Made by a program: the position numbers and the translations under genes | The notes under the pieces: generated by a model | The model's database searches: none | Told to the model about the DNA's origin: nothing | The model's input: only the letters and a program-made list of their open reading frames with translations | Assembly (NCBI GenBank): GCA_016200265.1 | Contig: JACQFE010000003.1 | Location: 1,126 to 65,125 of the forward strand | Reading direction: 5' to 3' | From: Planctomycetota bacterium | Lineage (GTDB): Bacteria > Planctomycetota > Phycisphaerae > UBA1845 | DNA: 64,000 nt | In this document: piece by piece, positions 1,424-16,137 of the stretch | How the letters are laid out: each line of letters starts with the position of its first letter | Position numbering within the stretch: the stretch's first letter is position 1

Positions 1424-1915
1424 AATCTGCGTAAATCCGCGGTTCTCGTCCCTTCGCCAGCCTTGTTTCGACTTTTCGATTTTTCGACGTTTCGACGATT
1501 CGACGATTCGACGATTTCACTCGCTCTTCGATCTTATTTTCAACATTCCGCATTCTGAATTCCGAATTCAGAACAGTGCCACACAATGACACTTGAGAAA
1601 AAATACTTTTCCAACCGAACCCATCTGAAAGTGTCGCTGAATATGCTGATTCGGGGGCGCTCGACGAAATTTTCCGACTCATAGTGCGCCGCGCAAGTTG
1701 TTGAATTGCCATGCGGTACTGTTTGCCTGTTGCCTTTTGAAATGCCGTTTCACGTGAAACAGAATTTGCGCCGATCTTTCAAGTGGCTCGTTTCAAGTCA
1801 AACAAATCTGCGTCATCTGCGGTTTCCGTCCCTTCGCTCTTCGCGATTCGCTCTTCGATCTTGCGTCCATTGCCCCGTTGCCCTCTTGCCTTGCTGCCTC
1901 GCCGCCTCTACCCGG
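1424..1915. repeat. Composite intergenic repeat region: two copies of a ~34-bp motif plus 7-8-mer tandem arrays
   Basis: aatctgcgt(aa/c)at(c)(c/t)gcggtt..cgtcccttcgc at 1424-1457 and 1805-1837. (ttcgacga)n at ~1466-1518. Perfect hairpin TTCTGAATT-CCG-AATTCAGAA at 1553-1573. cgctcttcgatctt follows both copies. Confidence 0.7.
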
Positions 1916-2473
1916 TCATTTCTCGATCGACTTCGGCATCCCTTCTTCAAGATCGACGCCCAGCCCGTCGGCCACGCGGTTGATGTAATTGAAAAAAGCG
2001 ATGGTTTGTGTGGCGTCGCTGATGGCCCGATCGTTCAGACCGTGTGATCGCAGCCGCTCAATATCGGACTGAGTGATCGTCCACGGCTCGCGAGTCAGCT
2101 TGATCGCGTGATCGCAAAGGGCGCGATCAACCGGCGACATCTTCGCCGTCGCGTAATCGATCATCACGCGGCGAACGAATTCCTCGTCGTGAACCTCCGA
2201 CCGGAGGTCGTACGAATGAGCAACCGTTCAGTAATGACAATGATTGGCGCGAGACACGACGACGGCCAGCATCTCCCGCTGTGCGCGGCTCAGCGGCGAT
2301 TCACCGCGAACGGCCGCCGTGTACAGATCGAGCATCCCCTGAAGCGCCGCCGGGCTCTGGCTTTGAATCTTGAGAATGTTGTAAACCCGTCCCGCGCGGC
2401 GCACTGCGTCATCGTAAATCGCGGCCAGCTTCCCGCCCGGCTCAGGCTGATCGATTGTCTGGATGAACGCCAT
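1916..2473 (-). CDS. Selenocysteine-containing AhpD/carboxymuconolactone-decarboxylase-like peroxidase (C-H-Y-U-T-V-A-H), 185 aa
   Basis: ORFs 2228..2473 and 1916..2167 are in the same frame and separated only by a TGA (2228-2230) and 20 open codons. The TGA occupies the second Cys of the AhpD CxxCxxxH motif. A SECIS-like hairpin lies downstream and tRNA-Sec is in the window. Confidence 0.9.
2192..2209 (-). promoter_or_regulatory. Bacterial SECIS hairpin
   Basis: On the minus strand, GACCTCC-GGTC-GGAGGTT forms a 7-bp stem with one G-U pair and a G-starting 4-nt loop. The loop is 25 nt downstream of the UGA. Confidence 0.8.
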
Positions 2474-2481
2474 GCAACGAC

Positions 2482-2661
2482 ATTGTCGATTGAAGTTTGT
2501 CGATTGTCGAATTTCGGCCGCCCATGGATTGGATTGTGCAACTTGCGTGTCCGAGCCGCGATTCAGTTATTTGATGAGATACGCTCCTTCACATTGAGCG
2601 AAGGCGGAGAGGTTGCGAAAGCCTTTTTCAATCGACAATCGAAAATCGGCAATCGACAATC
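2482..2661. repeat. Inverted pair of heptamer-like arrays (attgtcg / cgacaat) upstream of the selenoprotein gene
   Basis: attgtcgattg...tttgtcgattgtcg at ~2482-2510 and caatcgacaatcg...caatcgacaatc at ~2627-2661 are reverse complements. Confidence 0.55.
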
Positions 2662-2692
2662 AAATGAACGGAGCGGGAGGGATTCGAACCCT
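2662..2692. repeat. att core, tRNA-distal copy (duplicated tRNA-Ser 3' end)
   Basis: aaatgaacggagcgggagggattcgaaccct, identical to 14205-14235. It covers the T-loop symmetry AGGG-TTCGAAT-CCCT, the acceptor 3' strand and 7 nt beyond. Confidence 0.95.
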
Positions 2693-2890
2693 ACCGCACC
2701 CAGTCAAACGCGCATCGTAAAGCGTGAATCTGCAAGCACTTCCGAAAGTGGCTCGAAAAACATACGCACAGGCATACGCGACAAACGGCTCGCGGAGCTG
2801 ATTCAGCGATGGGATGAGCTGCCCGAACCGATGCGCGATGGCATCGCGGCGATGGTCCACGCGGCTTGCGGCGGTGAGTCGCGAAGTTAA
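2693..2890 (+). other. Detached C-terminal 65 codons of the integrase (rejoined in attP after excision)
   Basis: In the same frame through the att core as the integrase (NERSGRDSNP in both). Encodes TAPSQ...LAELIQRWDELPEPMRDGIAAMVHAACGGESRS and ends at TAA 2888-2890. No independent start is evident. Confidence 0.65.
2761..2780 (+). promoter_or_regulatory. Putative integrase arm-type sites (2 x CATACGC, 12-bp period)
   Basis: catacgcacaggcatacgcg is identical to 14073-14092 and lies 69 bp inside the distal att. Confidence 0.65.
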
Positions 2891-2930
2891 TCTTTTCGTT
2901 TGCGGGAAGGACGATTGATCGTCGTCCAAG

Positions 2931-3611
2931 TTGCATTACCCCGGTCGTTCGCACCTACGGCGATCGGGGTGGTGCAAACCTGCGGAAAGTAGGTGCAGCA
3001 TCACAACACGAACGCATGTCACACTCAAGAAACGCTTCTCCTGGGCGGCGTCCGAACTGGAATCGGTCATTGTCTCATTAGTAGGCGATGGTTCGAAATC
3101 GCGGTCGATGGTCGACAAGCTTCTCACTGGTGGACGTGAACGGGAAAAAGACACTCTTCCGTCAGTATACACCGTGGCGCACAAAGCAAATTGGAACGCG
3201 GACACCCGCAAGTATGCCGAGTGGAATGAAGAGATCGAGGCCTTACGCATGGCGTGCTGGTTGCTCGGGAAATACATGAGTGGCGATCCCCCAGAGGGAT
3301 TCATCAAAGAATTGCGAAAATGTGCTTCAAACCTACCGGCGGATGACATTGCGCCGGGCCTGAGCACTTTCGAAGAAATGAGATTTCAACTGTTGGTGTC
3401 GCGACCTCGACACAGGTGGCTGATGAGCGAATTCCATAGGCTATGCCGACGGAGCAACCTTCCGGCCTCGGAAAAGACGCTCAAGAATGTGGTGGACACT
3501 TTCGTTGAAAACGGCTTCGCTGAATTCACAAAGGGCGAAAAATCCGGGTTCGTTGTTACACCTACCGGGCAGGCCCATCACAAGATTCTGTCGGCTAGTC
3601 CATCCCGCTAA
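2931..3611 (+). CDS. Hypothetical protein, possible C-terminal winged helix; start uncertain
   Basis: Open 226-aa frame in element orientation. The C-terminus KTLKNVVDTFVENGFAEFTKGEKSGFVVTPTG resembles a recognition helix plus wing. Confidence 0.5.
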   Translation: MHYPGRSHLRRSGWCKPAESRCSITTRTHVTLKKRFSWAASELESVIVSLVGDGSKSRSMVDKLLTGGREREKDTLPSVYTVAHKANWNADTRKYAEWNEEIEALRMACWLLGKYMSGDPPEGFIKELRKCASNLPADDIAPGLSTFEEMRFQLLVSRPRHRWLMSEFHRLCRRSNLPASEKTLKNVVDTFVENGFAEFTKGEKSGFVVTPTGQAHHKILSASPSR

Positions 3612-3667
3612 GTTCCCTCAAAAATACGTCTCCGGTTCCCCACACGCCGGAATTCTCGTCGTAAATT

Positions 3668-3883
3668 GTGGGCATGGTATCGCTCAATGAATTCGACGCG
3701 CCGGTGACCGCTGCGGTGATGGCTCGCATCCTCGGCGTCAAAAGCGCATGGCTTATCACTGAGGCCAAGGCTGGACGGTTGCCACACATTCCGGCCGGCC
3801 AAACAGTTCTCTTCAACATCGACATCGTGAAGCGGTGCCTATTTGAACGATCGAAGGAGCTGCCATGCCGAGCGCAGGCGTGA
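3668..3883 (+). CDS. Excisionase-like HTH (HTH_17/MerR-like) protein
   Basis: VTAAVMARILGVKSAWLITEAKAGRLPHIPAGQTVLFNIDIVKRCL matches the Xis-type pattern (HTH, G.lP, strand, F....v). Confidence 0.7.
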   Translation: MGMVSLNEFDAPVTAAVMARILGVKSAWLITEAKAGRLPHIPAGQTVLFNIDIVKRCLFERSKELPCRAQA

Positions 3884-4122
3884 TCGTGAATTCGCAAGAG
3901 CTGTCACGGCTTGGTGCGTCGTGGAAGCCGGCCGACGTGGCGGCGTTTCTCAAGGTCGATCCGCGCACTTTGCGGAGGTTGATATCGAGCGGGGCATTTC
4001 CGGCAGCCGACATCGTTCTCACGGACAAAATCAAACGATGGCGGCAAGAGACGATCGATCGATGGATCGAGGCGCAGGCCAGCGATGGCCGCCGGATGCA
4101 GATTGCGAGGGCCGCCTGCTAA
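3865..4122 (+). CDS. AlpA-family phage regulatory protein
   Basis: WKPADVAAFLKVDPRTLRRLISSGAFPAADIVLTDKIKRWRQETIDRWIE. AAGGAG lies upstream. Confidence 0.85.
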   Translation: MPSAGVIVNSQELSRLGASWKPADVAAFLKVDPRTLRRLISSGAFPAADIVLTDKIKRWRQETIDRWIEAQASDGRRMQIARAAC

Positions 4123-4454
4123 ACCCATTCCAACCACCGGGTGAATTATTCGCCCCGCCGAAGGATAGCCTGGCCTTCGCAGTGGCCAGTCCAACATCGC
4201 GACGCGCGGCGAAGCGCGCAGAGCCGGGGGCGGCAACAATCGCGGCCCGAATCCTGAGCGAATTGCGACGCCAGGGTGCGGTGGGCTCGACCGATGACCA
4301 GTTGGAAATCGCACTACAAATTCCGGGCAATTCTCTTCGCGGCCGTCGGCAATGGTTAGAAAAGACGGGTCGCATTTGTAGGTCCAACCGCGAGCGCGAT
4401 ACGCGAACGGGATCGCCGGCGGTCGTTTGGGTGATTTCGGGGTGCGGGCGATGA
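4062..4454 (+). CDS. Phage-type winged-helix DNA-binding protein (start uncertain)
   Basis: RILSELRRQGAVGSTDDQLEIALQIPGNSLRGRRQWLEKTGRI...RDTRTGSPAVVW. The stop overlaps the next ATG (ATGA). Confidence 0.6.
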   Translation: MDRGAGQRWPPDADCEGRLLNPFQPPGELFAPPKDSLAFAVASPTSRRAAKRAEPGAATIAARILSELRRQGAVGSTDDQLEIALQIPGNSLRGRRQWLEKTGRICRSNRERDTRTGSPAVVWVISGCGR

Positions 4455-5467
4455 CGGCGGCCGCGAAACCACTCTTGCGGATCAAGGATTGGACCGAGTT
4501 CTTACCCTACGACAAAACGCGGAAGAATGCGTCTGAGAAGGGCGCCCTGGGGCATTATAAGCAACCCACAAAGCACGACTCCTGCGGAATTCGCAATGTC
4601 TCAAAACACCCGCACTCGGCTGCGGTTTATGGATGTTGGATTCTGATGGTCCAAGTTGCGGCAAAGTGCCAACCCCGAGGCACCCTGCGAGGTCGCGATG
4701 GGGCGCTGGATGCGTCAGACCTAGCGGGCCGCACGGGCTTTCCGGAAAAGTATTTTCGCGAGGCGATCGAAGTTCTACTCGATCCGAAAATCGGCTGGTT
4801 GGAGTTGGTGGGGAGTGAAGAGGCACAGTCATTGACACCCGCAAATGTCGCAAGCAACAGGACGTTTCCGGAAAGTTCCGTACGCGAACGTAAAGACACT
4901 GGTGTTGACGAGAATCACCGGAATCGTACGGAAAATTCCGGCTATCCTAGTGTAGTTCAGTCTAGTGTAATTAAGACCCCCCTACCCCCCAAGGGGGGAG
5001 CAGGCGCGTGGGAGCAAATCGTCGCATCATTGTCGCCTGAACTGAAAACACCCGCGTTCGAAACCGCGTGGCGAGAGTGGATCGACTACGGCAAGGACAG
5101 CAAGAAAAAACTGACCGCAGCCAGCGTATCGAAACAATTGAAACTTCTGGAGGAGCTGGGCCATGACCGAGCGATCACTTCGATTGATGCTTCCATCCGA
5201 AACGGCTGGGCCGGACTATTCGAACCAGACAAGGGGAGAGCTGGTAACACAACATCAAAAGGCGGCGAAGCGAATCGACCCGGAAGGATGGAAGCGAAAC
5301 CTGGGAAGTATGATCGTTTCCGCAAAGCGAACCAAGTTGAGCCGGGCGTTCTACATGAGAACGCTGAGGGGCCCGCGATGGCCCTTCGAATTGCCGAAGA
5401 TGGCACGCGATCCGCAGCGGGTGACGGAGTGCTTGCGCGATCCGCTGCGGGCGGCGGTTCTCGGTAA
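4451..5467 (+). CDS. Phage replication initiator / replisome-organizer-like protein
   Basis: N-terminal LRIKDWTEF...wHTH, a KTPLPPKGG linker and a C-terminal AWREWIDY...KKLT....KQLKLL..LGHD.A...I..SI.NGW.GLFEP domain. It sits directly upstream of a DnaC-like ATPase. Confidence 0.8.
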   Translation: MTAAAKPLLRIKDWTEFLPYDKTRKNASEKGALGHYKQPTKHDSCGIRNVSKHPHSAAVYGCWILMVQVAAKCQPRGTLRGRDGALDASDLAGRTGFPEKYFREAIEVLLDPKIGWLELVGSEEAQSLTPANVASNRTFPESSVRERKDTGVDENHRNRTENSGYPSVVQSSVIKTPLPPKGGAGAWEQIVASLSPELKTPAFETAWREWIDYGKDSKKKLTAASVSKQLKLLEELGHDRAITSIDASIRNGWAGLFEPDKGRAGNTTSKGGEANRPGRMEAKPGKYDRFRKANQVEPGVLHENAEGPAMALRIAEDGTRSAAGDGVLARSAAGGGSR

Positions 5468-5960
5468 GGGTGCATGGCCGATTTTTCTTCACGGCGAGGC
5501 CGGGTCTGGGAAAACGCTCGCTGCGCTGTGCGTCGGGGATTGGTGCGGAGACTGCGCGTACGTCGATATGCCAACCTTGTGTCACATGGTCAACGACGCG
5601 GCTTTCGGTCGGCTCTTAGATGATGACGGGAGTGCCATTCAGGTGACAGCAGTTTGGAAAAATTGGGCCAACGCGAATCTCGCGATCATCGACGAGATTG
5701 GGTCACGCGGCAAAGTTTCGGACGCGCATTTCGAAACGTTGAAGATGACGCTCGATTCGCGGGAGCGGCTGAACAAACCATTGATCGCCATTTCAAACCT
5801 AGACCCGGAAGCACTGGCGAACGTCTACGATGATCGAATCGCCAGCCGATTGAGCGCGGGCACGGTCTGTCGAGTTGACGGCGATCGACGGTTGGAAATT
5901 CACGACGCGCAGGCCGTTGATTCACCTTCGCCGGCGGCGGCAAAAAGGCGGGTTGGATGA
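5310..5960 (+). CDS. DnaC/IstB-like AAA+ helicase loader (start uncertain, 5310-5400)
   Basis: Walker A HGEAGSGKT, Walker B LAIIDEIG, and PLIAISNL...YDDRIASRL. Confidence 0.85.
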   Translation: MIVSAKRTKLSRAFYMRTLRGPRWPFELPKMARDPQRVTECLRDPLRAAVLGKGAWPIFLHGEAGSGKTLAALCVGDWCGDCAYVDMPTLCHMVNDAAFGRLLDDDGSAIQVTAVWKNWANANLAIIDEIGSRGKVSDAHFETLKMTLDSRERLNKPLIAISNLDPEALANVYDDRIASRLSAGTVCRVDGDRRLEIHDAQAVDSPSPAAAKRRVG

Positions 5961-6595
5961 TTCCTGAAACGAACATCGGGGTGCCGCTAGTCGACTGGAT
6001 GCACTGCATTTGCGGTGTGAGTGCAACGCCCGAGCCGAATTGCGAGCCGGGTTTGTCATCGCGCGCGGTTGATGGCCGGCTGCGGATTCGAATCGTCGGG
6101 CACGTCGCACGCAGGAAAACATTCGAGAGCATCGGAAACGCCTGGGCAAGCTGGCATGAACTCGCAATCTTGATTACTGGCGCGGCGGCCGATCCAAGCA
6201 TTCGCGGCGTCGATTTGCTTATCGAGGATTCGCGCAGTGCGAATTTTCATGGATACGACCGCGTTGAATTAGCAATCAGAGAATGCTGGCGGTCACGGAA
6301 AAAGGTGCGAACATACATCGAAGGCGATTGTTTCGGCGGTGCATTTTTGGTGGCACTTGCCACTTCATCGATCACGTGCGCTTCACGATCGCGAGTGGGG
6401 ATGCTTTCCATGTCCGACACAACAGCGGACCTGTGCTTGGTCAGCGGGATGGCGTCGGTCTGCGCGGACATGCTCAACGAGCTGCGTCCAAAGACACCGG
6501 CAGAGATTCGAGAGCGGATTCTCGCAGGTGACATTTTGAGTGCAGAGCAGGCAGAGGCCGCGAAACTTCTGCGGATAGGGAGGGTGCGGCGATGA
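5957..6595 (+). CDS. Degenerate S49/ClpP-crotonase-fold protein (probable pseudo-protease)
   Basis: AAADPSIRGVDLLIEDS...KKVRTYIEGDCFGGAFLVALATSSITCASRSRVG aligns by eye with the S49 core. The nucleophile motif ASAAY reads FGGAF. Confidence 0.65.
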   Translation: MIPETNIGVPLVDWMHCICGVSATPEPNCEPGLSSRAVDGRLRIRIVGHVARRKTFESIGNAWASWHELAILITGAAADPSIRGVDLLIEDSRSANFHGYDRVELAIRECWRSRKKVRTYIEGDCFGGAFLVALATSSITCASRSRVGMLSMSDTTADLCLVSGMASVCADMLNELRPKTPAEIRERILAGDILSAEQAEAAKLLRIGRVRR

Positions 6596-7575
6596 ATCAC
6601 CAGAGTTCAATTTCAGGGCAGGGAATTCCCGGCAACGTTGCGTTGCGCTCTCCATTGGCAATGAGCAGCGACGAGCTGAATCGCGTCGTTAGTATATGCC
6701 AGTCCATCGATCCCGGGATGATTGAATCAATTCGCGTAAATCGATCCGCGGCTGCACAGCGGGCGCAATCCGAGCGCAGGCCGCAAATGCCTTCAACCTG
6801 CAACACAGTGCAAGCAATTGCACAATGGCAGGCCGCGATGCGACCGTCTGCGCCGCGGGCGATCCCGCTGCCATTTCAGCGGATTGGAAGCGTGGCAATC
6901 GTTCACCTGAATGGCTTTTTGGCAAAGTACCCAAGTTGGCTTTTTTATTTCGTGAGGGGAACGTCGACCCTAGATTTCGCAGAGGCAGTGTCGGCGGCAG
7001 CCCGCGATACCCTGGTCAAGTCAATTGTGCTGATAGTCGATTCGGGCGGCGGTGAAGTGGCTGGAGCATTTCAAGCAGCTCAGGCCGTCTATGATGCACG
7101 CAAAAAGATGCGCGTCGTGGCAGTGACCAGTGATTTGAATGCCAGCTCGGCATTTTTGATTTCATCGCAGGCGAATGAAGTTGTCATAAACGAATCAGGG
7201 TTTTTGGGATCGATCGGGGTCTATGCGATTTTGGCCGACTACAGCGGAATGTACGAACGCGCTGGAATTAAAGTGAATGTAGTTAGAGCCGATGGTGCGG
7301 ACTTCAAAGGCATTGGTGAACCCGGATCCGAAATCACGCCGGCGCAGCTTGCCGAAGTGAAGCGCCGCGTCGAGCAGACTCATAATCTTTTTTTGCGGCA
7401 CGTGGCCCGCGGGCGAAATCTGCCCGTCGATCGAGTGAGAGCGTTGGCGACGGGACAGGCGTTCGGATCCAGTGAGGCAATTCGTAATAAATTAGCCGAT
7501 CGCGTGGTTTCCGATCCTGAATCAGTGATCACTGAGCTGGATCGACCCTTCGCAGAGCAGTTAGCCAAAATGTAG
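6592..7575 (+). CDS. S49-family (SppA / lambda gpC-like) head-maturation protease
   Basis: SIVLIVDSGGGEV, LNASSAFLISSQA (Ser nucleophile), GSIGV, FKGIG (Lys), F...VA.GR. Confidence 0.9.
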   Translation: MNHQSSISGQGIPGNVALRSPLAMSSDELNRVVSICQSIDPGMIESIRVNRSAAAQRAQSERRPQMPSTCNTVQAIAQWQAAMRPSAPRAIPLPFQRIGSVAIVHLNGFLAKYPSWLFYFVRGTSTLDFAEAVSAAARDTLVKSIVLIVDSGGGEVAGAFQAAQAVYDARKKMRVVAVTSDLNASSAFLISSQANEVVINESGFLGSIGVYAILADYSGMYERAGIKVNVVRADGADFKGIGEPGSEITPAQLAEVKRRVEQTHNLFLRHVARGRNLPVDRVRALATGQAFGSSEAIRNKLADRVVSDPESVITELDRPFAEQLAKM

Positions 7576-7660
7576 GCTGAATTTGAATCGGGGATGCACT
7601 GAGCAGGGGAATTGTGAATCGTTTTTTGACGGTCAACAGACGAACAAAGGAGAAAATTCT

Positions 7661-7837
7661 ATGGGATCAGCGACAGAGCAGTGGAATGCGGCGATTGAAG
7701 AAAAAATGGGCCAGGGAATGGACAAGGTCCGTGCGACGCGCGAGGTCGTGCACGAGAACCCGGAACTGCATCGCGCCTACATAGAGGAATTCAACGCGGC
7801 ACGTGGCCGGAAAGCTCGACTTCCCGAGCTGGTTTAA
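7661..7837 (+). CDS. Small helical protein, possibly scaffold-like
   Basis: AAGGAG RBS at 7647-7652; 58 aa containing ATREVVHENPELHRAYIEE; directly downstream of the protease. Confidence 0.7.
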   Translation: MGSATEQWNAAIEEKMGQGMDKVRATREVVHENPELHRAYIEEFNAARGRKARLPELV

Positions 7838-7894
7838 TTTTCGTCCGATGGTTTTCATCCGATTTTGAAACGATTGGCAACTGTGGGAGGAACA

Positions 7895-8746
7895 ATGCGA
7901 ATGGCTGCGACGAAAACGCCGCGAGAAAAATCAGCCGGGGACGGGGTTATTGTGGTGGGGCCGGCCAACGCTCCGAATCATTCGGATGCTGAATACGTTG
8001 GCCGGCGCGCGAAGGAATTCCGCATCGTCGAGGACATGCTTTTGCGTGTCGCCCGCGGCAGCGGTCAGCTCGATTTCGATGAACGCGAATTCGTATTATG
8101 CGCGACGAAATGGCCCATGGCGCGGATCGATTCGACAATCGGTGGCCTTAGAGAATCCCTTGAGAAGGCGCAGCGATGCGGCACGCGATCCGACCTGAAT
8201 GTCCTCAAAGAGCGGGCCGGCCTGGTTGAACGATCAGCAGAGGAAACCCGCGAACGATTACGCCCGGAGCTGGAGCGAATTCAATCTGAAATCGAGCGTG
8301 CGGAGGCGGCCGCCGGTGAGGCGCGGCGGAATTGCGAGTCAATGGAGATTGCGAACCACCGGATGTGCGGCGCCTTGACAGGGCTTTTTCCCTGGTTGGA
8401 TTCGCGGCGGGAGTGGCGCCGCCAACTGGTTGAATCGACATGCCGCGAATTGAGCGAGGTCAGGCAGGCAATCGGTCGGTTGGACTCGATCGCGTCGATT
8501 CGATTCGACGAATGGGATCGAGTCAAAGCACATTGCGCGCATCTTGCGTTGATCGATGAGGCACTCGAAACCAATTCGGACGGTTGGCCCACGCGCTGCG
8601 TGTGGGATGAATATATAACCCGGGTGAACTCACCGCGGGATGAGTTGGTAGCGCGCGGTCGTGAACTTGAACGCGAGAAGGCGGCAGCGTTTTCACGAAT
8701 AGATGCTGAATTCGTTGAGGAATTTATTCCGCGGCTGACCGGCTGA
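7895..8746 (+). CDS. Coiled-coil hypothetical protein
   Basis: GGGAGG RBS; long E/R/A-rich heptad stretches. Confidence 0.75.
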   Translation: MRMAATKTPREKSAGDGVIVVGPANAPNHSDAEYVGRRAKEFRIVEDMLLRVARGSGQLDFDEREFVLCATKWPMARIDSTIGGLRESLEKAQRCGTRSDLNVLKERAGLVERSAEETRERLRPELERIQSEIERAEAAAGEARRNCESMEIANHRMCGALTGLFPWLDSRREWRRQLVESTCRELSEVRQAIGRLDSIASIRFDEWDRVKAHCAHLALIDEALETNSDGWPTRCVWDEYITRVNSPRDELVARGRELEREKAAAFSRIDAEFVEEFIPRLTG

Positions 8747-8750
8747 ATCA

Positions 8751-8936
8751 ATGGTGCCCTTCCGCCCACTAGCGGCCTGGCTCTTCTGGCATGGCGGCCC
8801 GGCCGCGGTGGGTGCTGGCAGCGATGATGACCTGGGCCGGCTGCGGGACTTGCGTTTGACGCAAGTCGGGCGTTGCCAAGCTGGACGATCGCTGGGTCCT
8901 TTCCAGCCACCTGCCGCGCAAGGCTTTGCCCGATGA
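8751..8936 (+). CDS. Hypothetical protein
   Basis: Short ORF starting 5 nt after the previous stop, in element orientation. No motif recognised. Confidence 0.3.
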   Translation: MVPFRPLAAWLFWHGGPAAVGAGSDDDLGRLRDLRLTQVGRCQAGRSLGPFQPPAAQGFAR

Positions 8937-9108
8937 TCTTGGCCTTTTTGCGTGTACATCGCGTGATTTGGCAACGAGTGAGTTTCCCAAGAAGGTTTGC
9001 GGGCGGTTTGCGGGGCGGGCTGTCGCGGGGTCGTGTTGGTCGTGCGAGCGATGGTGCGTGCGGTTTGCGGCGAGCGTTGTCCGTTAACGAGCGAGATTGC
9101 GAGGGAGC

Positions 9109-10674
9109 ATGTCCGGAGCACAAGCACAAGTCGAAGTGGTGATGACCAGCGATCAGGCGCGCTTCTGGCGCGACCTGCAAAAATCGGTCGATAAACTCGA
9201 TCACGTCAAGGGCAAGCTCGATGACGTGGCCGGCGGCGCTGGGCGAGCTGGCAAGGAATTTGCACACTTCGGGGCCAGTGCGATCGAACAGCTGGCGGGA
9301 ATGGCTGCCGGGTTCGTGTCCGTTGAAAAAGCGCTCGAGTTGTCGGTTGAAGGATTCGACCTCTGGCTCGAAAAAACGCGGCAGGTCGGTGAGGCCAGCC
9401 AGAAACTCGCGACCGCCGGAAAGTCGCTCGCCACAGCCCAACGGCCGGGAATGTCCGGACTCGCATTCAAAGAGGGCGCGGAGCTGCTTTCGCAATTCGG
9501 ATTCACGGATCAACAGAAAGGCTTCGATCTAATCCGACAATTGCAGGGCGTGCGAGGCGGCGATCTAACGGCCGGTATGGAATCTGCGAGGACTGTGTTG
9601 CAAGGTTGGCGAGTTGGATTGCCGGTTGAACTCGCTTCCGAGACCGAAGCAAAGGGCGTTTCGCTCGGACTTCCGCCGGGCGTTTTGATCAAGCGAACAT
9701 TTGAAGCGGCGCGATTCGCAGGCGCGAATCCCAGCGACATGCTGGGCGGCGCCGGTGGACTCGTCGATTTTCGAGGGGAAGATCGATTTGCACTTGCCAT
9801 GCTCGCGGATTTGGTGAAACAAAAGGGCGCGGGCGGCGCGGCTTCATTCGAGCAAATCGGCCGCATTCTTTCCGGGCAGGATCAAGACCCGCATTGGAAG
9901 CGGATGGTCCGCAGTATCGAGCGAGAACTCGGCCCAGGCAAAGAAAATCTGCTTCGCGGATTGCTGGGGAAGCGCATCATTGAACCTGAGCAATTGCGAA
10001 AAGCGGGGGTGAAGGGTCGGGCCGGCGTGCCAGAGGCGATGAGTTTCGCGCTGAAGGATTTTGGCGCGATCCTCGCCGGCAAGTACGACCTCGAGCACTA
10101 TGACGAAGCCAACATTTTTGAGAACTTGTTCGCGCAGCTTCAGCGCGAAGTTCCGGGACTCCGCGACGCCGAAGCTAACCGGATTCTGGGGGCAAAGTTT
10201 GAACACGAGCTCGCCGCCGATCCGAAGGCGGCATTCGCTCGAAAAATGGAAACGGAAGAGCGCCTTCGTGGCCGGGCGCTACAAAAAATGGGTCTCTCGA
10301 GTGTCGGTCCATTTGGAGCATTCGCAACCTACGATGAAAGCGGCCGCGCGATTCGCAGTATAGGTGAAAACGTCTTCGGACCGTTCGGCTGGCGGGGTGT
10401 GTTGACACGCCTGGAAGTGCCGCGCTACGGCACTTCGATGGTGCCGGCTGAGGATGAAATAGAATATGAAATGGCCGAGCTTCGCCGCGGCGATCGCAAG
10501 CGAGAAGTTGAGGTGCGACGGCCGCGACTTGGCGGCGCCGAATCGACTGGCGCTGGGGGCGGCGACTTGAGAGCGGCAATCCGGGAACTTGCTGACACCA
10601 ACATCTTGCTGCGATCCGCGATTCATAGCTTTCGCGGCGGGCCGACACTCGGGAAACCGGGGGCCGATCGCTAG
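9109..10674 (+). CDS. Tail tape-measure-like protein (521 aa)
   Basis: GAGGGAG RBS. The N-terminus QVEVVMTSDQARFWRDLQKSVDKLDHVKGKLDDVAGGAGRAG...LAGMAAGFVSV and a long Ala/Gly/Leu-rich helical body are typical of tape measures. Confidence 0.6.
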   Translation: MSGAQAQVEVVMTSDQARFWRDLQKSVDKLDHVKGKLDDVAGGAGRAGKEFAHFGASAIEQLAGMAAGFVSVEKALELSVEGFDLWLEKTRQVGEASQKLATAGKSLATAQRPGMSGLAFKEGAELLSQFGFTDQQKGFDLIRQLQGVRGGDLTAGMESARTVLQGWRVGLPVELASETEAKGVSLGLPPGVLIKRTFEAARFAGANPSDMLGGAGGLVDFRGEDRFALAMLADLVKQKGAGGAASFEQIGRILSGQDQDPHWKRMVRSIERELGPGKENLLRGLLGKRIIEPEQLRKAGVKGRAGVPEAMSFALKDFGAILAGKYDLEHYDEANIFENLFAQLQREVPGLRDAEANRILGAKFEHELAADPKAAFARKMETEERLRGRALQKMGLSSVGPFGAFATYDESGRAIRSIGENVFGPFGWRGVLTRLEVPRYGTSMVPAEDEIEYEMAELRRGDRKREVEVRRPRLGGAESTGAGGGDLRAAIRELADTNILLRSAIHSFRGGPTLGKPGADR

Positions 10675-10676
10675 TA

Positions 10677-11039
10677 GTGAGCGGATCAATGAACGACGAC
10701 GAAATTTGCGAGGCATTTGAGAAATTGAACGACCAGTTGACCGAGGCCGGACGATTGCTCGATGAGCATCTTCAACGGATTACGGCGATGATGGTCAGGT
10801 ACGAAGGGTCGGTCGATTCGCTGCGACATCAACTGAGCGATCACGTCGTGACACGAGAACTGACCATCCTCGATTCCGCGGGGCAAAAGCGTGCGTCGTT
10901 GTCGGTGCTCGATGGTCGCGCCTTGTTGATCTTGGCTGACGACGCGGGCCGAAATGTGGTTTATGCGCCGTCGTTGCCAGGCGAATCGAGCGAGAATTCC
11001 GGCTCGCCGGTCGATGACACAGATCCGCAAGGGCCGTGA
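10677..11039 (+). CDS. Hypothetical protein, N-terminal coiled coil plus beta-rich C-terminus
   Basis: VVTRELTILDSAGQKRASLSVLDGRALLILADDAG; abuts the previous stop. Confidence 0.65.
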   Translation: MSGSMNDDEICEAFEKLNDQLTEAGRLLDEHLQRITAMMVRYEGSVDSLRHQLSDHVVTRELTILDSAGQKRASLSVLDGRALLILADDAGRNVVYAPSLPGESSENSGSPVDDTDPQGP

Positions 11040-11262
11040 TTTTCGCCTGAAACCGTACCCTATTGACGCCGGCGGCGGTTCGATTGAGAATGATCGGGCC
11101 GACGGATGTAGAAGCACCCGCCGGCCCTGATCACACGATCGTGGGTTAACACGAGTCGCATGACTGAACGCATCATATTTGACCATGCACTTCATTCAAC
11201 CCGCGATCTTGCTGCGCGCGTGCGCGGCACCAGGTCCACACTTCTAGCCAGGAGCATTCATC

Positions 11263-11916
11263 ATGGAATTCGCGATTAAACGGTATCGAAGAGAAAAGGC
11301 ACGAATCAAACAGTTGGCCAGAGGCTCGAGGCGATTGAATTGGAAAAGGCGATCCCGCGGCGGAGGCGGCGGCGATCGGGAATCGAACCGACGCCCACAA
11401 GCGAAGGCAGACGAGAGCGAGGCAACCGGGTTCATGGTGAGGATCCCGACCGGGACGCTCGTCAACGCATTGGTCGACTCGTGCGGCGGTCACGTTGAAT
11501 GGTGCAAGGCTGTCCTGATCGGCGGCGGCACGGCTGTTGGGTGGGTCAGGGTCATCCAACCCGACGATCCATCGCCCGCACTCAAGGTGCTCGTCGGAAA
11601 AGTTTTTCACGCCCCATGGCACAACATCGAAGCCCATGTCGAGGGGTTGGCCGAAAAGGGCGGCCGCAGAGATCGAGATTGCAAAAAACTCGACGATGAG
11701 ATGGACCTACTTTCCATCGAAACGAAGAGCGTCGCGGCGTGCAGGCTGCTACTCGAAGTGGAAACCAATCAGAGCTATGAATCGATGAAGCCGGATGACA
11801 GTTCCTACTTGCACGCAGCGATGGAGCTGGTCGAGGAAGTGGTCGACAAGGTGCGCGGTGTTCGGCGATCGCTGTATCCAGACGGCAGTGAGGGCGACGC
11901 ACGTGGAAGCAAATGA
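11263..11916 (+). CDS. Hypothetical protein
   Basis: AGGAG RBS at ~11250; 217-aa ORF in element orientation. Confidence 0.65.
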   Translation: MEFAIKRYRREKARIKQLARGSRRLNWKRRSRGGGGGDRESNRRPQAKADESEATGFMVRIPTGTLVNALVDSCGGHVEWCKAVLIGGGTAVGWVRVIQPDDPSPALKVLVGKVFHAPWHNIEAHVEGLAEKGGRRDRDCKKLDDEMDLLSIETKSVAACRLLLEVETNQSYESMKPDDSSYLHAAMELVEEVVDKVRGVRRSLYPDGSEGDARGSK

Positions 11917-12201
11917 CCCACGGGCTTGCTACTGCCCTGTGTGCGAGGGGCTTTGCTCGACGATGGCCGCGAGCTGTCCGCGGTGCGGGCATCCGCTGGC
12001 AAACCCGGCCGACAGCATCGGCGGGACCGTGCCGGCGGCGGTCGCGTTCCGATGTTGGTCAATCGCGGCACGGTCGGCGGTGGCAGTCCGGGCGATTTGA
12101 TGGGCGCGGCACTATGCGGCCTCGGAGCGATGTTGCTGGGGGCTTTGCTGCGTGCCGTCGCGGGAATCTGGTACGGCGTCGAGCGGATCGCGAGGCGGTG
12201 A
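11903..12201 (+). CDS. Zinc-ribbon plus transmembrane protein, possibly frameshifted near 12050
   Basis: CPVCEGLCSTMAASCPRCGHPL in one frame and hydrophobic MLVN...GAALCGLGAMLLGALLRAVAGIW in another. The junction reads TTC CG ATG. Confidence 0.45.
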
Positions 12202-12217
12202 ACGGAGGGTGTGTAAA

Positions 12218-12697
12218 ATGACGGATTCAGCATCGACGATGACCATATCCATTGACCAGGCTGGGCGGATGACTGGGATCGGGAAAGATCGACTGCGGGA
12301 GCTGATGCACAATGGAACGCTCAAGGGCTATGTGAGCAAGGCGGGGAAGCGATTCAGGCCGTCGGTTTATTCGTTGCTGGTGAACGTGCTGGGCTATCCC
12401 AGCGACGTGGCGGGCAAGGTGGTAGTCGACGCACTGGCCGAGCACGCTGCGTGCAACACAGCGTCGCGGACGGCGTCCAGCACGCGGCTGGCGCTTCCAC
12501 GTCCGCCGATACGAAACCAGCGCGGAGCTGTCGCTGTCGTTCGGCAAGTCGAACCGGATGGCGTTCACCATGGTCGGGATCAAATTTTCGTCAAATCTGA
12601 TCCTGACGTCGACGCGATCCTGATAGACATGCGTCGGAGGCGTGCGGCGCGGCGTGAACGCTGGCGAAATGAAGGCCGCGCAAAGTTGGTTGGGTGA
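12218..12697 (+). CDS. Excisionase-like HTH protein
   Basis: GGAGGG RBS; TISIDQAGRMTGIGKDRLRELMHNGTL HTH; immediately upstream of the integrase. Confidence 0.7.
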   Translation: MTDSASTMTISIDQAGRMTGIGKDRLRELMHNGTLKGYVSKAGKRFRPSVYSLLVNVLGYPSDVAGKVVVDALAEHAACNTASRTASSTRLALPRPPIRNQRGAVAVVRQVEPDGVHHGRDQIFVKSDPDVDAILIDMRRRRAARRERWRNEGRAKLVG

Positions 12698-12774
12698 ACC
12701 GTTGACGCGATGCGTGTGTAGAAGAGGGTCGGAGACAATGGCGGGGTCGATCAACCCCTGGGAGTAGGTGCAAA

Positions 12775-14526
12775 ATGTCGAGAATCTTCAAGCCGAAGTA
12801 TCCGAAAATGCGGATCGTGCATGGCGCCGACGGCAAGCCGGTGATGGAACGGCGCATCGCGAAGCGGGGGCCGAACAAAGGCCAGCTCGTCACAATCCCC
12901 AAGCGTGAACCCGTCGTCGATTCCAACGGCCAAATCGTCTACAAGCGCTCCAGTCGATGGGCAATCGAGTACACGGATGCTCGTGGTGATCGGCGCACTG
13001 CGGCTGGACACACTGACAAAGAGGCGACGGAATCGAAGGCAGCGAAGATCGTCACGCGCATCGCCAGGCAGAAAGAGGGCATTTTCGATACTGACGTGGC
13101 GCACCTGCAGACACCGGTCAAGGTTCACGCGGCTGCATGGATTGCCGACCTTGAACGGACCGGCAGTTCCAAGGGGTACATTCGGATGGTGCGCGCCCGC
13201 GTCGGCCGTCTTTGTCTCGAGCTGCAATGGACGACGCCCCCCACCATCGATGCGGAATACGTAGCGGCGTGGCTGGCCGCACGCAAAGCGGGCGGGATGA
13301 AGCCTCGGACCCTGAATCACTACCTGGACGCTCTAAATGCTTTCTGCAAGTGGGCGAAGGTTGCAAAGCGTTTCGAAGTCAACCCCGTCGAACACGTTAC
13401 AAAGACGACGGTCGGGCAATCATCAGAGACGCGCCGAGCACTGTCAGCGGATGAGCTGGGGCGGCTGGTCGTAGTGCATCCAATTCGCGGGCGGGTATAT
13501 CTCACAGCGGCGCTGACGGGACTACGTAGAAGTGAGCTGGCGGCGCTCCAATGGGGTGACATACAGCTTGGCGGGGCGAATCCGCATATCTTGCTACGTG
13601 CTGAAACGACGAAATCGAGGCGTGCCGACACGATCCCTTTGAACGATGAAATCAGCCGGCGTCTGCGAGAGTGGCAACCCCCCCACTGTCTGCCCGCGGA
13701 CCGGGTATTTCAATCAATTCCACAGTGCCGCGCGGCCAGGGCCGCGACCGAAAAAAGGCCAGGCAAGTGCGCCAGCGCCTTCGATCGTGATCTTGCGGCC
13801 GCGGGAATCGAGAAAGAAGTCGATGGGCGGCGCGTCGATCTTCACGCGCTGCGAAAAACCATGAATGTGCTGTTGGCAAAGAGTGGCGTCGATGTGCGTG
13901 ACGCGATGACGTTGATGCGCCACACGGATATCCGCTTGACGACGAAGGTCTATGCCGATCCGCGGCTACAAGATCTTCACGGTGCGATGAACAAGATTCC
14001 GATCGTCGCGCCCGAGCCCGAGCGAGCACGCGCTTTCGGAACATGCGATGCAAGGCCAGACATACGCAAAAGCATACGCACAGGCATACGCGTCAGTGCG
14101 TCCGCGAGTGGCCGCAAGCGGGTCAAAATGCACATTGAACCGTCGGACGCGGAAGCACGGCGAACAAGCGCAACCGCTGGTGAGTGCCATAGTTATGACA
14201 CAAAAAATGAACGGAGCGGGAGGGATTCGAACCCTCGGTGCAGTTTCCCGCACACCGCATTTCCAGTGCGATCCCTTCAGCCACTCGGACACCGCTCCAT
14301 GTGTTTTCGCGACACGAGAATCCATCAACGATTGGCCTTGGCGCCAAGGATCGATTCCAATTTGCGCGAACCAGCGAATTTTGGCGGGATTGAGAACATC
14401 GGTCAAGCTGATGACGACCTTCGACGCATGGTTCAAGGGCAACTTCGCAATACGGTTGACATCACCGGGTCCGCACTTACATTGCATCTTCGGCCAAGGC
14501 GCAAGCCGATGCCCGAGGGCTCGTAG
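12775..14526 (+). CDS. Tyrosine recombinase (integrase); frame runs through the att core and antisense through tRNA-Ser
   Basis: Catalytic R (TGLRRSEL), K (TTKSRR), HxxR (HALR), H (MRHTD) and Y (TKVY). 487 codons lie up to the att end and 96 beyond it. Confidence 0.95.
   Translation: MSRIFKPKYPKMRIVHGADGKPVMERRIAKRGPNKGQLVTIPKREPVVDSNGQIVYKRSSRWAIEYTDARGDRRTAAGHTDKEATESKAAKIVTRIARQKEGIFDTDVAHLQTPVKVHAAAWIADLERTGSSKGYIRMVRARVGRLCLELQWTTPPTIDAEYVAAWLAARKAGGMKPRTLNHYLDALNAFCKWAKVAKRFEVNPVEHVTKTTVGQSSETRRALSADELGRLVVVHPIRGRVYLTAALTGLRRSELAALQWGDIQLGGANPHILLRAETTKSRRADTIPLNDEISRRLREWQPPHCLPADRVFQSIPQCRAARAATEKRPGKCASAFDRDLAAAGIEKEVDGRRVDLHALRKTMNVLLAKSGVDVRDAMTLMRHTDIRLTTKVYADPRLQDLHGAMNKIPIVAPEPERARAFGTCDARPDIRKSIRTGIRVSASASGRKRVKMHIEPSDAEARRTSATAGECHSYDTKNERSGRDSNPRCSFPHTAFPVRSLQPLGHRSMCFRDTRIHQRLALAPRIDSNLREPANFGGIENIGQADDDLRRMVQGQLRNTVDITGSALTLHLRPRRKPMPEGS
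14061..14092 (+). promoter_or_regulatory. Putative integrase arm-type sites (3 x CATACGC, 12-bp period)
   Basis: catacgcaaaag-catacgcacagg-catacgcg, ending 113 bp before the att core. Confidence 0.65.
14205..14235. repeat. att core, tRNA-proximal copy
   Basis: Identical 31-mer to 2662-2692, overlapping the last 24 nt of tRNA-Ser. Confidence 0.95.
14212..14298 (-). tRNA. tRNA-Ser (GGA), CCA not encoded
   Basis: GGAGCGG acceptor, TCGCA-CTGGAAA-TGCGG anticodon arm, long variable arm, GAGGG-TTCGAAT-CCCTC T arm. Confidence 0.95.
14456..14483 (+). promoter_or_regulatory. Putative sigma70 promoter of tRNA-Ile
   Basis: TTGACA-N16-TACATT, ~34 nt upstream of the tRNA. Confidence 0.5.
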
Positions 14527-14590
14527 CTCAGTTGGTTAGAGCGCGTCGCTGATAACGACGAGGTCCGAGGTTCGAATCCTCGCGGGCCCA
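14517..14590 (+). tRNA. tRNA-Ile (GAT), CCA not encoded
   Basis: GGGCTCGTAGCTCAGTTGGTTAGAGC...CGTCG-CTGATAA-CGACG...GTTCGAATCC...GGGCCCA. Confidence 0.97.
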
Positions 14591-14724
14591 GTACTATGGA
14601 AGCCTCCGGATTCCGCGTGGCCTATAGTCTATGGACGCAGGAATGGTTGGAAATCGAACTTTTCTATCCCGACGAAAATCCGTCCTCAAGAGTCGTTGGC
14701 CTGCCCTTCCGATAGAATGGGTGT

Positions 14725-15168
14725 ATGACCGAGCACACGAATCGACTAATTTCTGAGTTCCGCCGCAGGCCGATTCCTGCTTGGCTAGTGTTGTCGCTGT
14801 ACGCTGTGAGCGGATTGGGTATTGCTGTATTAGTTCCTGCTTTCAAAGCGCTTGGGTCGTCCTGCTTCGGGCGCAGTGGTTACGGCGTCGCGATCGTGGT
14901 CAATGTTGTTCTCCCGTTGTTTTTCGTCGTCGCGGCCGCTTGGTATCCGAAATGGTCTGTGGCACTTCCGGGAACTTTCCTCACAATTCTTGTATTCATG
15001 CTTGCGACCGGCATGTTGCCGACTTCATTGTCCGGCGACTGGATCGGTTCCTTTCGCGGAATGGAGCCCGTTTTTGTCATTGCCTGTATTGCCTATTTCA
15101 TAATCAGTTTCATCACGGTCGCTATCGTGCGAACGATGCAACACATCGGCGCGACGCCCCCTGCGTAA
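14725..15168 (+). CDS. Four-TM membrane protein; C-terminal zinc ribbon cut off by TAA at 15166
   Basis: Hydrophobic helices. In frame after the TAA comes PTCREGFQSGNVSGACPECGTRI, ending at a TGA (15238-15240) that overlaps the next ATG. Confidence 0.7.
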   Translation: MTEHTNRLISEFRRRPIPAWLVLSLYAVSGLGIAVLVPAFKALGSSCFGRSGYGVAIVVNVVLPLFFVVAAAWYPKWSVALPGTFLTILVFMLATGMLPTSLSGDWIGSFRGMEPVFVIACIAYFIISFITVAIVRTMQHIGATPPA

Positions 15169-15236
15169 CCTACGTGCCGCGAAGGATTCCAATCGGGCAA
15201 CGTCTCAGGCGCTTGTCCCGAGTGTGGAACACGAAT

Positions 15237-15659
15237 ATGACACCACGCCGTGCGAGAAACTTGAGCGCACTCATTGCGATTCTCTGTGGAAGCGTGTTGC
15301 TAAGCTCGCTATTTCTAGACTATGGCTATACGGGGCACGGTGTGATTGTAGCAATCACGGAAGGGTCAGTTGTTGGGAGTCCGTTGTCACCCGGCCAAGG
15401 TTGGGCCGTTTGGAGCTGGCACTGGCCGCGCACTAATTACTGGCTTCCTCATCTATTTTCGGATCCACGAATCTTCGAAATTGCCATACCCCTCTGGATA
15501 CCGACCGCCTTGTCAATCGTTGTCACCGCGCTCTTTCATCACAGAGTACATGCCACGAAACCCGGCTGTTGTCGCAAGTGCGAATACGACCTTACCGGAA
15601 ACGTATCGGGCACCTGTCCCGAATGTGGAACACGAACGCATCGAGAAACAGCAAGCTAG
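15237..15659 (+). CDS. Membrane protein with C-terminal CxxC..DLTGNVSGxCPECG zinc ribbon
   Basis: IPLWIPTAL TM segment, then CRKCEYDLTGNVSGTCPECGT. Confidence 0.8.
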   Translation: MTPRRARNLSALIAILCGSVLLSSLFLDYGYTGHGVIVAITEGSVVGSPLSPGQGWAVWSWHWPRTNYWLPHLFSDPRIFEIAIPLWIPTALSIVVTALFHHRVHATKPGCCRKCEYDLTGNVSGTCPECGTRTHRETAS

Positions 15660-15696
15660 GAATTCACATCGTGGTAGTTGCAATCTTTCGTCCGCT

Positions 15697-16137
15697 CTAA
15701 GAAAGCGAGTGCCCACCAGCTCGGCTCGATGGCCAAAAGGCCGCTACGAGAAGCGCGGCACTTGCGATGCAAACGATGATCGTGGCGCATAGAAATGGAA
15801 CCGCTTCAAAATATCGTGCGCCCATCAGTCCGATGAGCACCGGCGGCAATGTGGCGATCGTCAAGGCTGTCGCGCGAACGACCATCAAAGCCCATCGTTC
15901 GCCCCGTGTCGCATACGGCGCAGCGAACGCGGTTAGGAACCCCAGCGGCAAGAGGAGAATGCCGACGACGACATGGTTCAGGAGCATCGGCGGCGTGAGA
16001 AAGTCAACGGACCCCGGCAACGCAGACTGACGCACGAACTGAACGATGTGCGGGGTTACGGCCAAGTGCAATCCGCCCAAGACGACAAGCAGGACACCGC
16101 CGATCCAGAGAATGACTGACCGAAGCGGATAGCGCAT
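15697..16137 (-). CDS. Four-TM integral membrane protein
   Basis: MRYPLRSVILWIGGVLLVVLGGLHL... with four hydrophobic segments. Confidence 0.75.
   Translation of the reverse strand: MRYPLRSVILWIGGVLLVVLGGLHLAVTPHIVQFVRQSALPGSVDFLTPPMLLNHVVVGILLLPLGFLTAFAAPYATRGERWALMVVRATALTIATLPPVLIGLMGARYFEAVPFLCATIIVCIASAALLVAAFWPSSRAGGHSLS

Follow-up and report, generated by a model that had tools for sequence, protein, structure and literature searches.

A tRNA-integrated element with phage protease and tape-measure genes points to a candidate satellite family in Planctomycetota

In a 64,000-nt stretch of the genome of a Planctomycetota bacterium (contig C55, positions 1126–65125; hereafter the window, in whose numbering positions are given), an 11.5-kb element carries an integrase, a replication module, an active S49 prohead protease with a catalytically dead copy, and a tape-measure-like gene. 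On balance, judged from its sequence, this element is probably an intact, integrative, self-replicating and helper-dependent satellite of one phage lineage, and belongs to an undescribed planctomycete family with hosts of Phycisphaerae type. Three of the features by which a satellite would be recognized are found here: the element has its own integration and replication functions, no genes for building a virion of its own were detected, and it is one of a conserved, distinct and reduced type of element; a satellite life style is plausible. An earlier note, made by reading the window alone, had proposed a planctomycete satellite that remodels the head and tail of a helper phage, and the recurrence of the layout in other genomes, together with the match of its virion genes to a single phage lineage, supports that proposal at the genomic level.

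Results

Boundaries and layout of the element

The assembly that contains the window comprises 4.56 Mb in 80 contigs and is 94% complete. A perfect 31-nt direct repeat (2662–2692 and 14205–14235) bounds the element with a spacing of 11,543 bp, which defines the element unit, and the whole 4.56-Mb assembly holds only these two copies of the pattern. The right copy, the attR core, overlaps the 3′ end of a tRNA-Ser(gga) gene on the minus strand (14211–14299), and the left copy, the attL core, is a duplicate of that 3′ end. A perfect repeat that overlaps the 3′ end of a tRNA gene is a classic sign of site-specific integration into that gene, and the satellite size and intact att repeats described in the earlier note both hold. 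Repeats built of GCATACGC units flank the att core as candidate arm-type integrase-binding sites, one on its right (2756–2783, 93% identical to 14068–14095) and a pair on its left (14056–14095, with copies at 14056–14083 and 14068–14095). Both sites of this repeat type fall within the integrase frame of the excised form, where the peptide IRTGIR occurs twice.

All supported genes of the element lie on the plus strand, as the earlier note had described, and GC skew is positive along the entire element; ten minus-strand open reading frames (ORFs) of 154–410 amino acids (aa) have no Pfam match. The element is ~88% coding, and its main reading frames are uninterrupted and tightly packed: ATGA overlaps join the stop of the helicase-loader gene to the start of the dead S49 gene and the latter to the active S49 gene, and a 120-aa gene begins 2 nt past the tape-measure stop. 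None of the element ORFs matched a capsid, portal or terminase family in Pfam, PHROG, NCBIfam or PADLOC, in agreement with the earlier note, or a tail-tube or lysis family in Pfam, PHROGs or NCBIfam, these missing classes being judged at the sensitivity of the profile libraries and with four ORFs left without assignment. PADLOC found no defence family among the element genes, and an Rfam scan returned tRNAs only.

Related elements in other genomes

The genomic contexts of family members were read by exact look-up and pattern scans. Recurrence of the same gene order at ~10–12 kb, which the earlier note had proposed to look for, was found in locus L011 (10.6 kb), locus L012 (12.1 kb) and the 10.2-kb contig L041, and in partial form in L009. 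In L011, from a metagenome-assembled genome (MAG) of Phycisphaerae, perfect 27-nt att repeats lie 10,624 bp apart at a tRNA-Ser(gga) gene, and the genes encode, in order, proteins of 232, 70 and 105 aa, a replication protein (Rep, 278 aa), an S49 protease (459 aa), a 283-aa protein, a tape measure (521 aa), proteins of 134, 45 and 229 aa, a helix-turn-helix (HTH) protein (160 aa) and an integrase (497 aa). In L012, perfect 44-nt att repeats lie 12,068 bp apart at a tRNA-Lys gene, with genes for proteins of 231, 68 and 130 aa, an AAA_25 helicase-type protein (420 aa), a dead S49 copy, or pseudo-S49 (223 aa), an S49 protease (316 aa), proteins of 323 and 52 aa, a tape measure (537 aa), proteins of 120 and 187 aa, an integrase, a T5orf172-type protein and a second integrase. 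The second integrase and the T5orf172/MUG113-type nuclease gene, which lie between the first integrase and attR (13618–15829 of that locus), may be a tandem or nested insertion.

Contig L041 carries an HTH_36 initiator, a DnaC-like loader homologous to that of the window (E 1e-6), a 395-aa S49 protease, four small genes and a 521-aa tape measure, and the last of these small genes resembles the gene at the chaperone position of the phages described below (9e-7). The partial element L009 has an HTH gene, a rep gene with internal repeats, a pseudo-S49, an S49 protease, a 141-aa homologue of the post-tape-measure gene, and an HTH_17 gene, with weak tape-measure-like pieces only. Inside its 191-aa gene, a 249-nt unit is tandemly duplicated (18427–18924, 92% identity).

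The order of replication genes, S49, spacer genes and tape measure is common to the window, L011, L012 and L041, and the proteins shared by the relatives are ~28–45% identical to those of the window. Between the window and L011, significant matches comprise the integrase (43%), the Xis-type HTH protein, one small HTH protein, the 105-aa gene product, Rep, S49, an 84-aa domain and the tape measure (28%).

Two further loci carry other parts of this gene set. L033 (ERZ24794676 contig, 639–10533) is a small element with a tape measure, an HTH_17 protein and a Toprim-type 855-aa protein but no S49; it carries a homologue of a 174-aa gene from the phage tail region and adjoins a tRNA-Pro gene and a gene pair of DEAD/MZB helicase and RNase_H_2. 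L034 (Phycisphaera MAG, 8564–11452), beside a tmRNA gene, encodes the integrase closest to that of the window (55%) and a Rep-like protein only, with no S49, no tape measure and no repeat of at least 18 nt. The presence of int and rep alone in L034 indicates that the int–rep backbone also exists without the virion-gene module.

Relation to a phage lineage

The tape-measure family also occurs in full phages, in five contexts (L013, L031, L032, L039 and L040) and in nine further ones (L046–L048, L050, L053, L055, L057, L059 and L060), and among eight distant tape-measure-like matches in planctomycete genomes six are full phages (L023–L025, L027, L028 and L030). The conserved virion module of this widespread tailed-phage lineage begins with a GpA-type terminase, a Phage_portal_2 portal, an S49 protease of 446–474 aa, a 120-aa gene product and a gpT-like capsid protein of ~325 aa, with the exception of L013, which has a ClpP-type protease in place of S49. 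The module continues with connector-size genes, a tail-tube-size gene (~307 aa), a ~130-aa gene, a gene of ~250–280 aa at the chaperone position and the tape measure, followed by genes of ~120, 186 and 225 aa and then by larger ones. These full-phage relatives share with the element the S49 protease and the tape measure only, and both virion genes of the element are, by protein comparison, homologous to this single phage lineage.

The interval between the S49 and tape-measure genes measures 1.2–2.3 kb in the small elements versus 5.6–6.5 kb in the phages, whose longer interval accommodates the capsid, connector, tube and chaperone-position genes. The elements carry replication genes upstream of S49, whereas the phages carry portal and terminase genes there. 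Two complete genomes (G330 and G404) contain prophages of the lineage, and in the ~30 kb on each side of their tape-measure genes no homologue of the initiator, the loader or the HTH proteins was found; the integrases of both prophages are only distantly related. This absence of the backbone from two lineage prophages argues that the element is not a simple deletion derivative. In addition, a reduced layout shared by elements whose proteins are ~28–45% identical, with perfect att repeats, suggests long persistence rather than recent random decay. The earlier note had named a deleted prophage as the alternative; taken as a simple deletion, this is contradicted by the missing backbone and by the recurrence of the reduced order in L011, L012 and L041. 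No capsid ORF was found in the element, no full prophage from which it would be a simple deletion came to light, and its gene set is conserved elsewhere. A search with the S49 protease in viral contigs yielded no related loci.

Protease module

The gene at 6592–7575 (plus strand) encodes an active S49 prohead protease, also called a head maturation protease (PF01343, E 2e-31; phrog_53, E 1e-52). Its residues Ser185 and Lys239 align with the S49 catalytic dyad, and it is 30–44% identical to S49 proteases that come after the portal gene in phages; by its domain, its Ser/Lys dyad and the post-portal position of its relatives, it is a bona fide S49 prohead protease. Directly upstream, the gene at 5957–6595 (plus strand) encodes a collinear S49-fold copy that is predicted to be catalytically dead, with Gly at the position of the Ser nucleophile and without the Lys motif. 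This pseudo-S49 matches the active S49 at E 0.028 only but matches the upstream copy in L009 at E 2e-9, and the L009 copy itself matches S49 proteases at 1e-15. The upstream copies of L009 and L012 likewise have Gly at the nucleophile position and lack the Lys motif, so a dead S49 copy in the window, L009 and L012 is a conserved feature. Of the two S49 proteins reported in the earlier note, one is thus an active protease and the other a degenerate pseudo-enzyme.

The next gene (7583–7837, plus strand) encodes an 84-aa protein that appears to be a detached C-terminal tail domain of S49. It matches residues 395–447 of the 459-aa S49 of L011 (E 4e-10) and the S49 C-termini of full phages (L024, 8e-7; L040, 5e-6; L031, 3e-4; L032, 1e-3). 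The matched region corresponds to the last ~50 residues of the longer S49 proteases, with a PEL..AY motif common to all, and L012 encodes a comparable free peptide of 52 aa. The earlier note had taken the 84-aa product for a scaffold-like small protein; the small size stands, and the homology found is with the extreme C-terminus of the S49 protease (3e-10 to 1e-3).

The following gene (7865–8746, plus strand) encodes a 293-aa protein (281 aa as called), for which an AlphaFold2 (AF2) single-sequence model of low confidence (pLDDT 50) is all helix with zero strands, in keeping with the coiled-coil protein of the earlier note. It gave a weak coiled-coil-type profile match only, weakly matches the 283-aa product of the positionally equivalent L011 gene (E 0.003), and found only itself in a word-indexed search of 5.8 billion proteins. 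An all-helical model is a poor fit to an HK97-type capsid protein.

Tape-measure gene

The gene at 9109–10674 (plus strand) encodes a 521-aa protein (525 aa in its ORF form) whose identification as tape-measure-like, made in the earlier note, is confirmed by its predicted fold and by the position of its homologues in phages. A HMMER scan of 1.84 billion representative sequences yielded a family of 110 relatives, mostly of 470–570 aa. An AF2 model of the 521-aa protein, built from a 50-sequence alignment, is all-alpha (pLDDT 83, pTM 0.72), and the named Foldseek matches in BFVD are without exception tape measures or minor tail proteins (E 4e-8 to 1e-3), with TM-scores of a modest 0.4–0.5, as expected for flexible helical proteins. 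In more than ten full-phage contexts, the homologues lie between the tail-tube-size and chaperone-position genes on one side and distal tail genes on the other, a position that agrees with the predicted tape-measure fold; the window element itself lacks those tail-gene neighbours around its tape measure.

The family was recognized by no Pfam, PDB sequence-profile or PHROG entry, and the tail genes of the phage lineage were likewise unrecognized by Pfam, PDB profiles and PHROGs. The 525-aa protein found only itself in the word-indexed search of 5.8 billion proteins, had no tblastn match among 50,697 phage records and had no homologue in 60 related genomes. A capsid identity for this protein was considered by analogy with the 523-aa Phage_capsid_4 protein that follows the closest S49 relative (L007); the two show no similarity, and the fold is tape-measure-like.

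The tape measures of the satellite-type elements are about as long as those of phages (472–585 aa, with two at 603 and 651 aa), so that a changed tail length is not an obvious purpose. A quick tree did not place the tape measures of the small elements in one clade; with weak support, they interleave with phage copies, and the window copy sits on a long branch. Repeated capture or exchange of the gene could account for such a pattern.

The 350-nt gap upstream of the tape measure contains a GC-rich tandem repeat (8998–9081; 27-nt copies, 81% identical, 57 nt apart), and at the corresponding place L011 carries a 78-nt repeat (9798–9978 of that locus) with a similar CGGGCGG(T)TTTG motif. Neither repeat has an Rfam match, and these repeats could be a regulatory or packaging site. 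The 120-aa gene downstream of the tape measure (10677–11039, plus strand) is specific to this element type and is the exception among the accessory genes in having retained a sequence motif, T.RL.IVNSAG..VA.L, which also occurs in the 134-aa protein of L011 and the 141-aa protein of L009. Profile comparison did not support its identity with the post-tape-measure gene of phages.

Replication, integration and remaining genes

The element encodes its own replicon, as the earlier note had stated. A lambda O-like replication initiator (4427–5467, plus strand) matches phrog_678, 'replication initiation O-like', at E 9e-12 and has homologues in L011, L009 and L034. Within the initiator gene (4738–4975), TTTCCGGAAA repeats and an AT-richer tandem repeat form a candidate replication origin, and L009 and L011 also carry repeats within their rep genes. 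A DnaC-like AAA+ helicase loader follows (5400–5960, plus strand; phrog_50, 'DnaC-like helicase loader', E 2e-17), with weak Bac_DnaA/AAA_22 matches; its ORF opens at 5163 and its true start is uncertain.

The tyrosine integrase (12775–14526, plus strand; PF00589, E 8e-17) has its RHRHY catalytic residues in place (R251, H357, R360, H383 and Y393), as the earlier note had observed. Its open frame lacks a stop before the att core and continues through attR and antisense to tRNA-Ser, giving 583 aa in the integrated state, and would give 552 aa in the excised circle. The integrase of L011 (13545–15038 of that locus) reads through in the same way, with 86% amino acid identity over 29 residues encoded antisense to the tRNA. 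The C-terminal read-through tail may be incidental, as the catalytic domain extends only to about residue 400.

Among the AlpA/Xis genes proposed in the earlier note, an 85-aa HTH_17 protein (3865–4122, plus strand; PF12728, E 3e-10) is firmly identified and has a 70-aa homologue in L011 (E 4e-7). The two others have weaker profile matches (E 0.002–0.03): a small 71-aa HTH protein (3668–3883, plus strand; HTH_17, E 0.029), with a homologue in L009 (E 2e-7), and an excisionase-type HTH protein directly upstream of the integrase (12152–12697, plus strand; TIGR01764, E 0.002; HTH_17, E 0.014), with the 160-aa homologue in L011 (E 4e-9).

A small conserved protein absent from the list of the earlier note is encoded at 4062–4454 (plus strand, start uncertain): residues 106–197 of the 3843–4454 frame match the 105-aa gene product of L011 (E 2e-10). 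The first gene after attL (2931–3611, plus strand, start uncertain) has no family match; genes of L011 (232 aa) and L012 (231 aa) occupy its position with no detectable sequence similarity, and its product is possibly a regulator. A 217-aa protein (11263–11916, plus strand) also has no family match, and genes of 229 aa (L011) and 187 aa (L012) stand at the same position. Outside the element, two minus-strand ORFs lie directly left of attL (1916–2473), and a tRNA-Sec gene lies 2 kb to the right (16304–16398).

Other phage-like loci in the genome

Contig C69 of the same assembly carries, on the minus strand at a contig end (175–8839), a Mu-like head module with Terminase_6, Portal_Mu, a Mu-like protease I, a 254-aa gene, a gpT capsid gene and five small genes. 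This is a fragment of a co-resident phage or prophage, and its gpT capsid protein is 33% identical to the gpT-like capsid protein of the lineage described above. No protein of the element resembles the C69 module, and a link between the two was rejected. Other S49 genes in the genome were examined as possible marks of a helper prophage; each stands alone among large ORFs that are not phage-like, and they probably encode cellular SppA. Nucleotide motifs shared between satellite and phage that might mark a cos site were sought, and none was found.

Discussion

The gene content of the element departs from P4-like satellites, PICIs and capsid-forming PICIs (cfPICIs), as the earlier note had argued, and the marker set of none of the three is found in the element. 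Like P4-like satellites, which depend on helper virion genes, the element is tRNA-integrated, ~11 kb long, and equipped with a tyrosine integrase, an AlpA-type regulator and its own replication genes; of the seven core P4-like markers, however, no match to Sid, Psu, Delta or the alpha primase-helicase was found in Pfam or PHROG, and the replication genes of the element are instead O-like and DnaC-like. It resembles SaPIs and PICIs in a layout of int, a Xis-type regulator, replication genes and morphogenesis-interference genes, but homologues of TerS, Ppi/Ptis and a Stl-type repressor are absent. Set against the description of the SatelliteFinder PICI model, the integrase and AlpA-type HTH protein are present, whereas a primase-type Rep and TerS are absent and a tail gene is present. 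With cfPICIs it shares an integrase, an AlpA-type regulator, replication genes and a serine prohead protease of phage origin (PMC10085698), but the 11 core markers of that model include an own capsid, portal-related proteins, a head-tail adaptor or connector and a terminase, none of which was found in the element, and again a tail gene is present.

A satellite-encoded tape measure is not unprecedented, as the PLE and EPIP satellites demonstrate. The PLE tape measure of Vibrio cholerae is ~20% identical to that of its helper ICP1 and is selectively built into chimeric tails; in PLE11, its own tape measure permits escape from its own anti-tail protein, and predicted tmp genes in unrelated putative satellites were noted by the same authors (bioRxiv 10.1101/2025.01.29.635557). 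EPIP satellites (Extracellular Prophage-Inducing Particles) of Mycolicibacterium aichiense are reported to carry a tape measure without tail-tube and lysis genes and to form particles with altered tails (PMC12822802). Compared by description, EPIPs differ from the element in their serine integrase, TerS, head-tail adaptor or stopper, scaffold and actinobacterial hosts, and S49 is not reported for them. PLEs resemble the element in being small, integrated, self-replicating satellites without capsid, portal or terminase, with their own tape measure; they also remodel helper capsids. By contrast, capR, repA, nixI, TcaP and the small RNA SviR of PLEs, for which SatelliteFinder uses a 15-marker model, lack counterparts in the element, PLE proteins having been compared by description only. 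PLEs also carry a tail chaperone, often a baseplate hub, and no prohead protease, whereas the element has S49; and they occupy Vibrio hosts with an unrelated helper type, whereas the window element uses a tyrosine integrase and O-like plus DnaC-like replication.

For the head, the nearest parallel is SaPI1, whose 72-aa CpmB shares its C-terminal helix-and-hook with the helper scaffold and competes for capsid protein, leading to small capsids (PMC5644958). In a similar way to SaPI1 CpmB/CpmA, where CpmB copies the C-terminus of the scaffold, the 84-aa protein of the window and the 52-aa peptide of L012 copy the C-terminus of the phage-type S49; the mimic in the window differs in deriving from the tail of a protease rather than from a free scaffold, and in being accompanied by active and dead S49. 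By analogy, the element may be closest in its working to PLE for the tail and to SaPI1 for the head.

On this basis, a life cycle can be proposed. When a helper infects or is induced, the element would excise through its integrase and the HTH protein encoded upstream of int, and would replicate from the repeats inside the initiator gene, with the loader recruiting host DnaB. The protease module (dead S49, active S49, the 84-aa peptide and perhaps the 293-aa protein) would enter helper procapsids through the C-terminal contact that the helper's protease also uses, in competition with the helper protease and scaffold; the 84-aa or 52-aa peptide could dock to the helper capsid protein, in analogy to SaPI1 CpmB. 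Helper head assembly would be redirected or damaged, possibly yielding smaller heads that fit 11.5 kb. The tape measure of the element would replace that of the helper to form chimeric tails, as in PLE with ICP1, and the helper terminase would package the element DNA. An own tape measure might also, speculatively, evade tape-measure-directed blocks encoded by helpers or satellites. We tentatively extend this to the family, as a conjecture in which we place less confidence than in the satellite life style itself: both ends of the helper virion may be rebuilt, a ring of dead and active S49 with a free docking tail acting against the protease-scaffold and an own tape measure producing chimeric tails, and repeated exchange of tape measures between satellites and helpers would keep the two matched.

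Several results weigh against a helper-dependent satellite. Neither this MAG nor the genomes that carry L011, L034, L035 and L037 have a Phage_portal_2 (lambda-type) portal, and outside the element this MAG contains no homologue of the tube, chaperone or tape-measure genes, so the helper prophage elsewhere in the genome that the earlier note had suggested looking for did not appear. The search for TerS, cos or pac candidates was negative, and the elements share no nucleotide similarity with the phages outside the S49 and tape-measure genes. The accessory genes at matching positions are too diverged for homology to be detected, their sizes and order being what agrees, and the model of the 293-aa protein is of low confidence. 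The elements are rare: among 400 other genomes sampled from the phylum there was no other full-length tape-measure match, and all three matches in IMG/VR viral contigs are full phages with no satellite-type context. The helper gap was weighed against the incompleteness of the MAG, and the helper could be a virulent phage.

The missing packaging gene or site would suit an anti-phage interference island, in which phage-derived genes serve host defence as decoys that poison head maturation and tail assembly and transfer is independent of packaging. The virion genes specify parts of multimers (S49 rings, the procapsid core and the tape-measure trimer), which are classic dominant-negative targets, the dead S49 copy is conserved in three elements, and interference with tail assembly is a known function of satellites and PICIs (PMC11364771), as with Rta of PLE11 (bioRxiv 10.1101/2025.01.29.635557). 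However, PADLOC defence families match no gene of the element, the replication module and precise att sites are retained, and 10–12 kb is a typical size of packaged satellites; we consider such an island unlikely, and since PLE and SaPI combine interference with piracy, it largely overlaps with the satellite reading. Slightly less likely still is a cryptic prophage remnant, in which a full temperate phage became immobile through large deletions and left the protease and tape measure behind. The clear full-phage homologues of both virion genes, the lack of a helper and the partly decayed look of L009, with overlapping frames, weak tape-measure-like pieces and an adjoining transposase, are in its favour. 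Yet at least three other elements have the same reduced order at ~28–45% protein identity, three elements retain perfect att repeats, and the main frames run without interruption and leave little space between them. Two complete lineage prophages also lack the replication and regulatory backbone, and two separate deletions with matching end points would be needed in every lineage.

The ORFs without recognized families leave room for an autonomous miniature virus, with capsid and packaging proteins hidden among those starting at 2931, 7865 and 11263, and this we regard as very improbable. Four ORFs have no detectable homologues or folds and planctomycete viruses are poorly sampled, but the 293-aa protein is predicted to be all-helical, neither HK97 nor jelly-roll, the DnaC-like loader is the sole ATPase, and a tape measure would serve no purpose in the absence of tube and baseplate genes, neither of which the element has.

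No published phage satellite from Planctomycetota was found in the literature searched, and to our knowledge the phages of this phylum are barely known. SatelliteFinder forbids tail genes in its PICI and cfPICI models (PMC10085698), and elements of this kind are likely to be missed by models that count tail genes against a satellite. If the satellite reading is correct, satellite biology would extend to a new phylum, and a further independent lineage with its own tape measure would stand beside PLE and EPIP, supporting tail manipulation as a general satellite strategy. It would also reveal a new form of attack on head assembly, in which an active protease, a dead copy of it and a detached docking peptide are combined.

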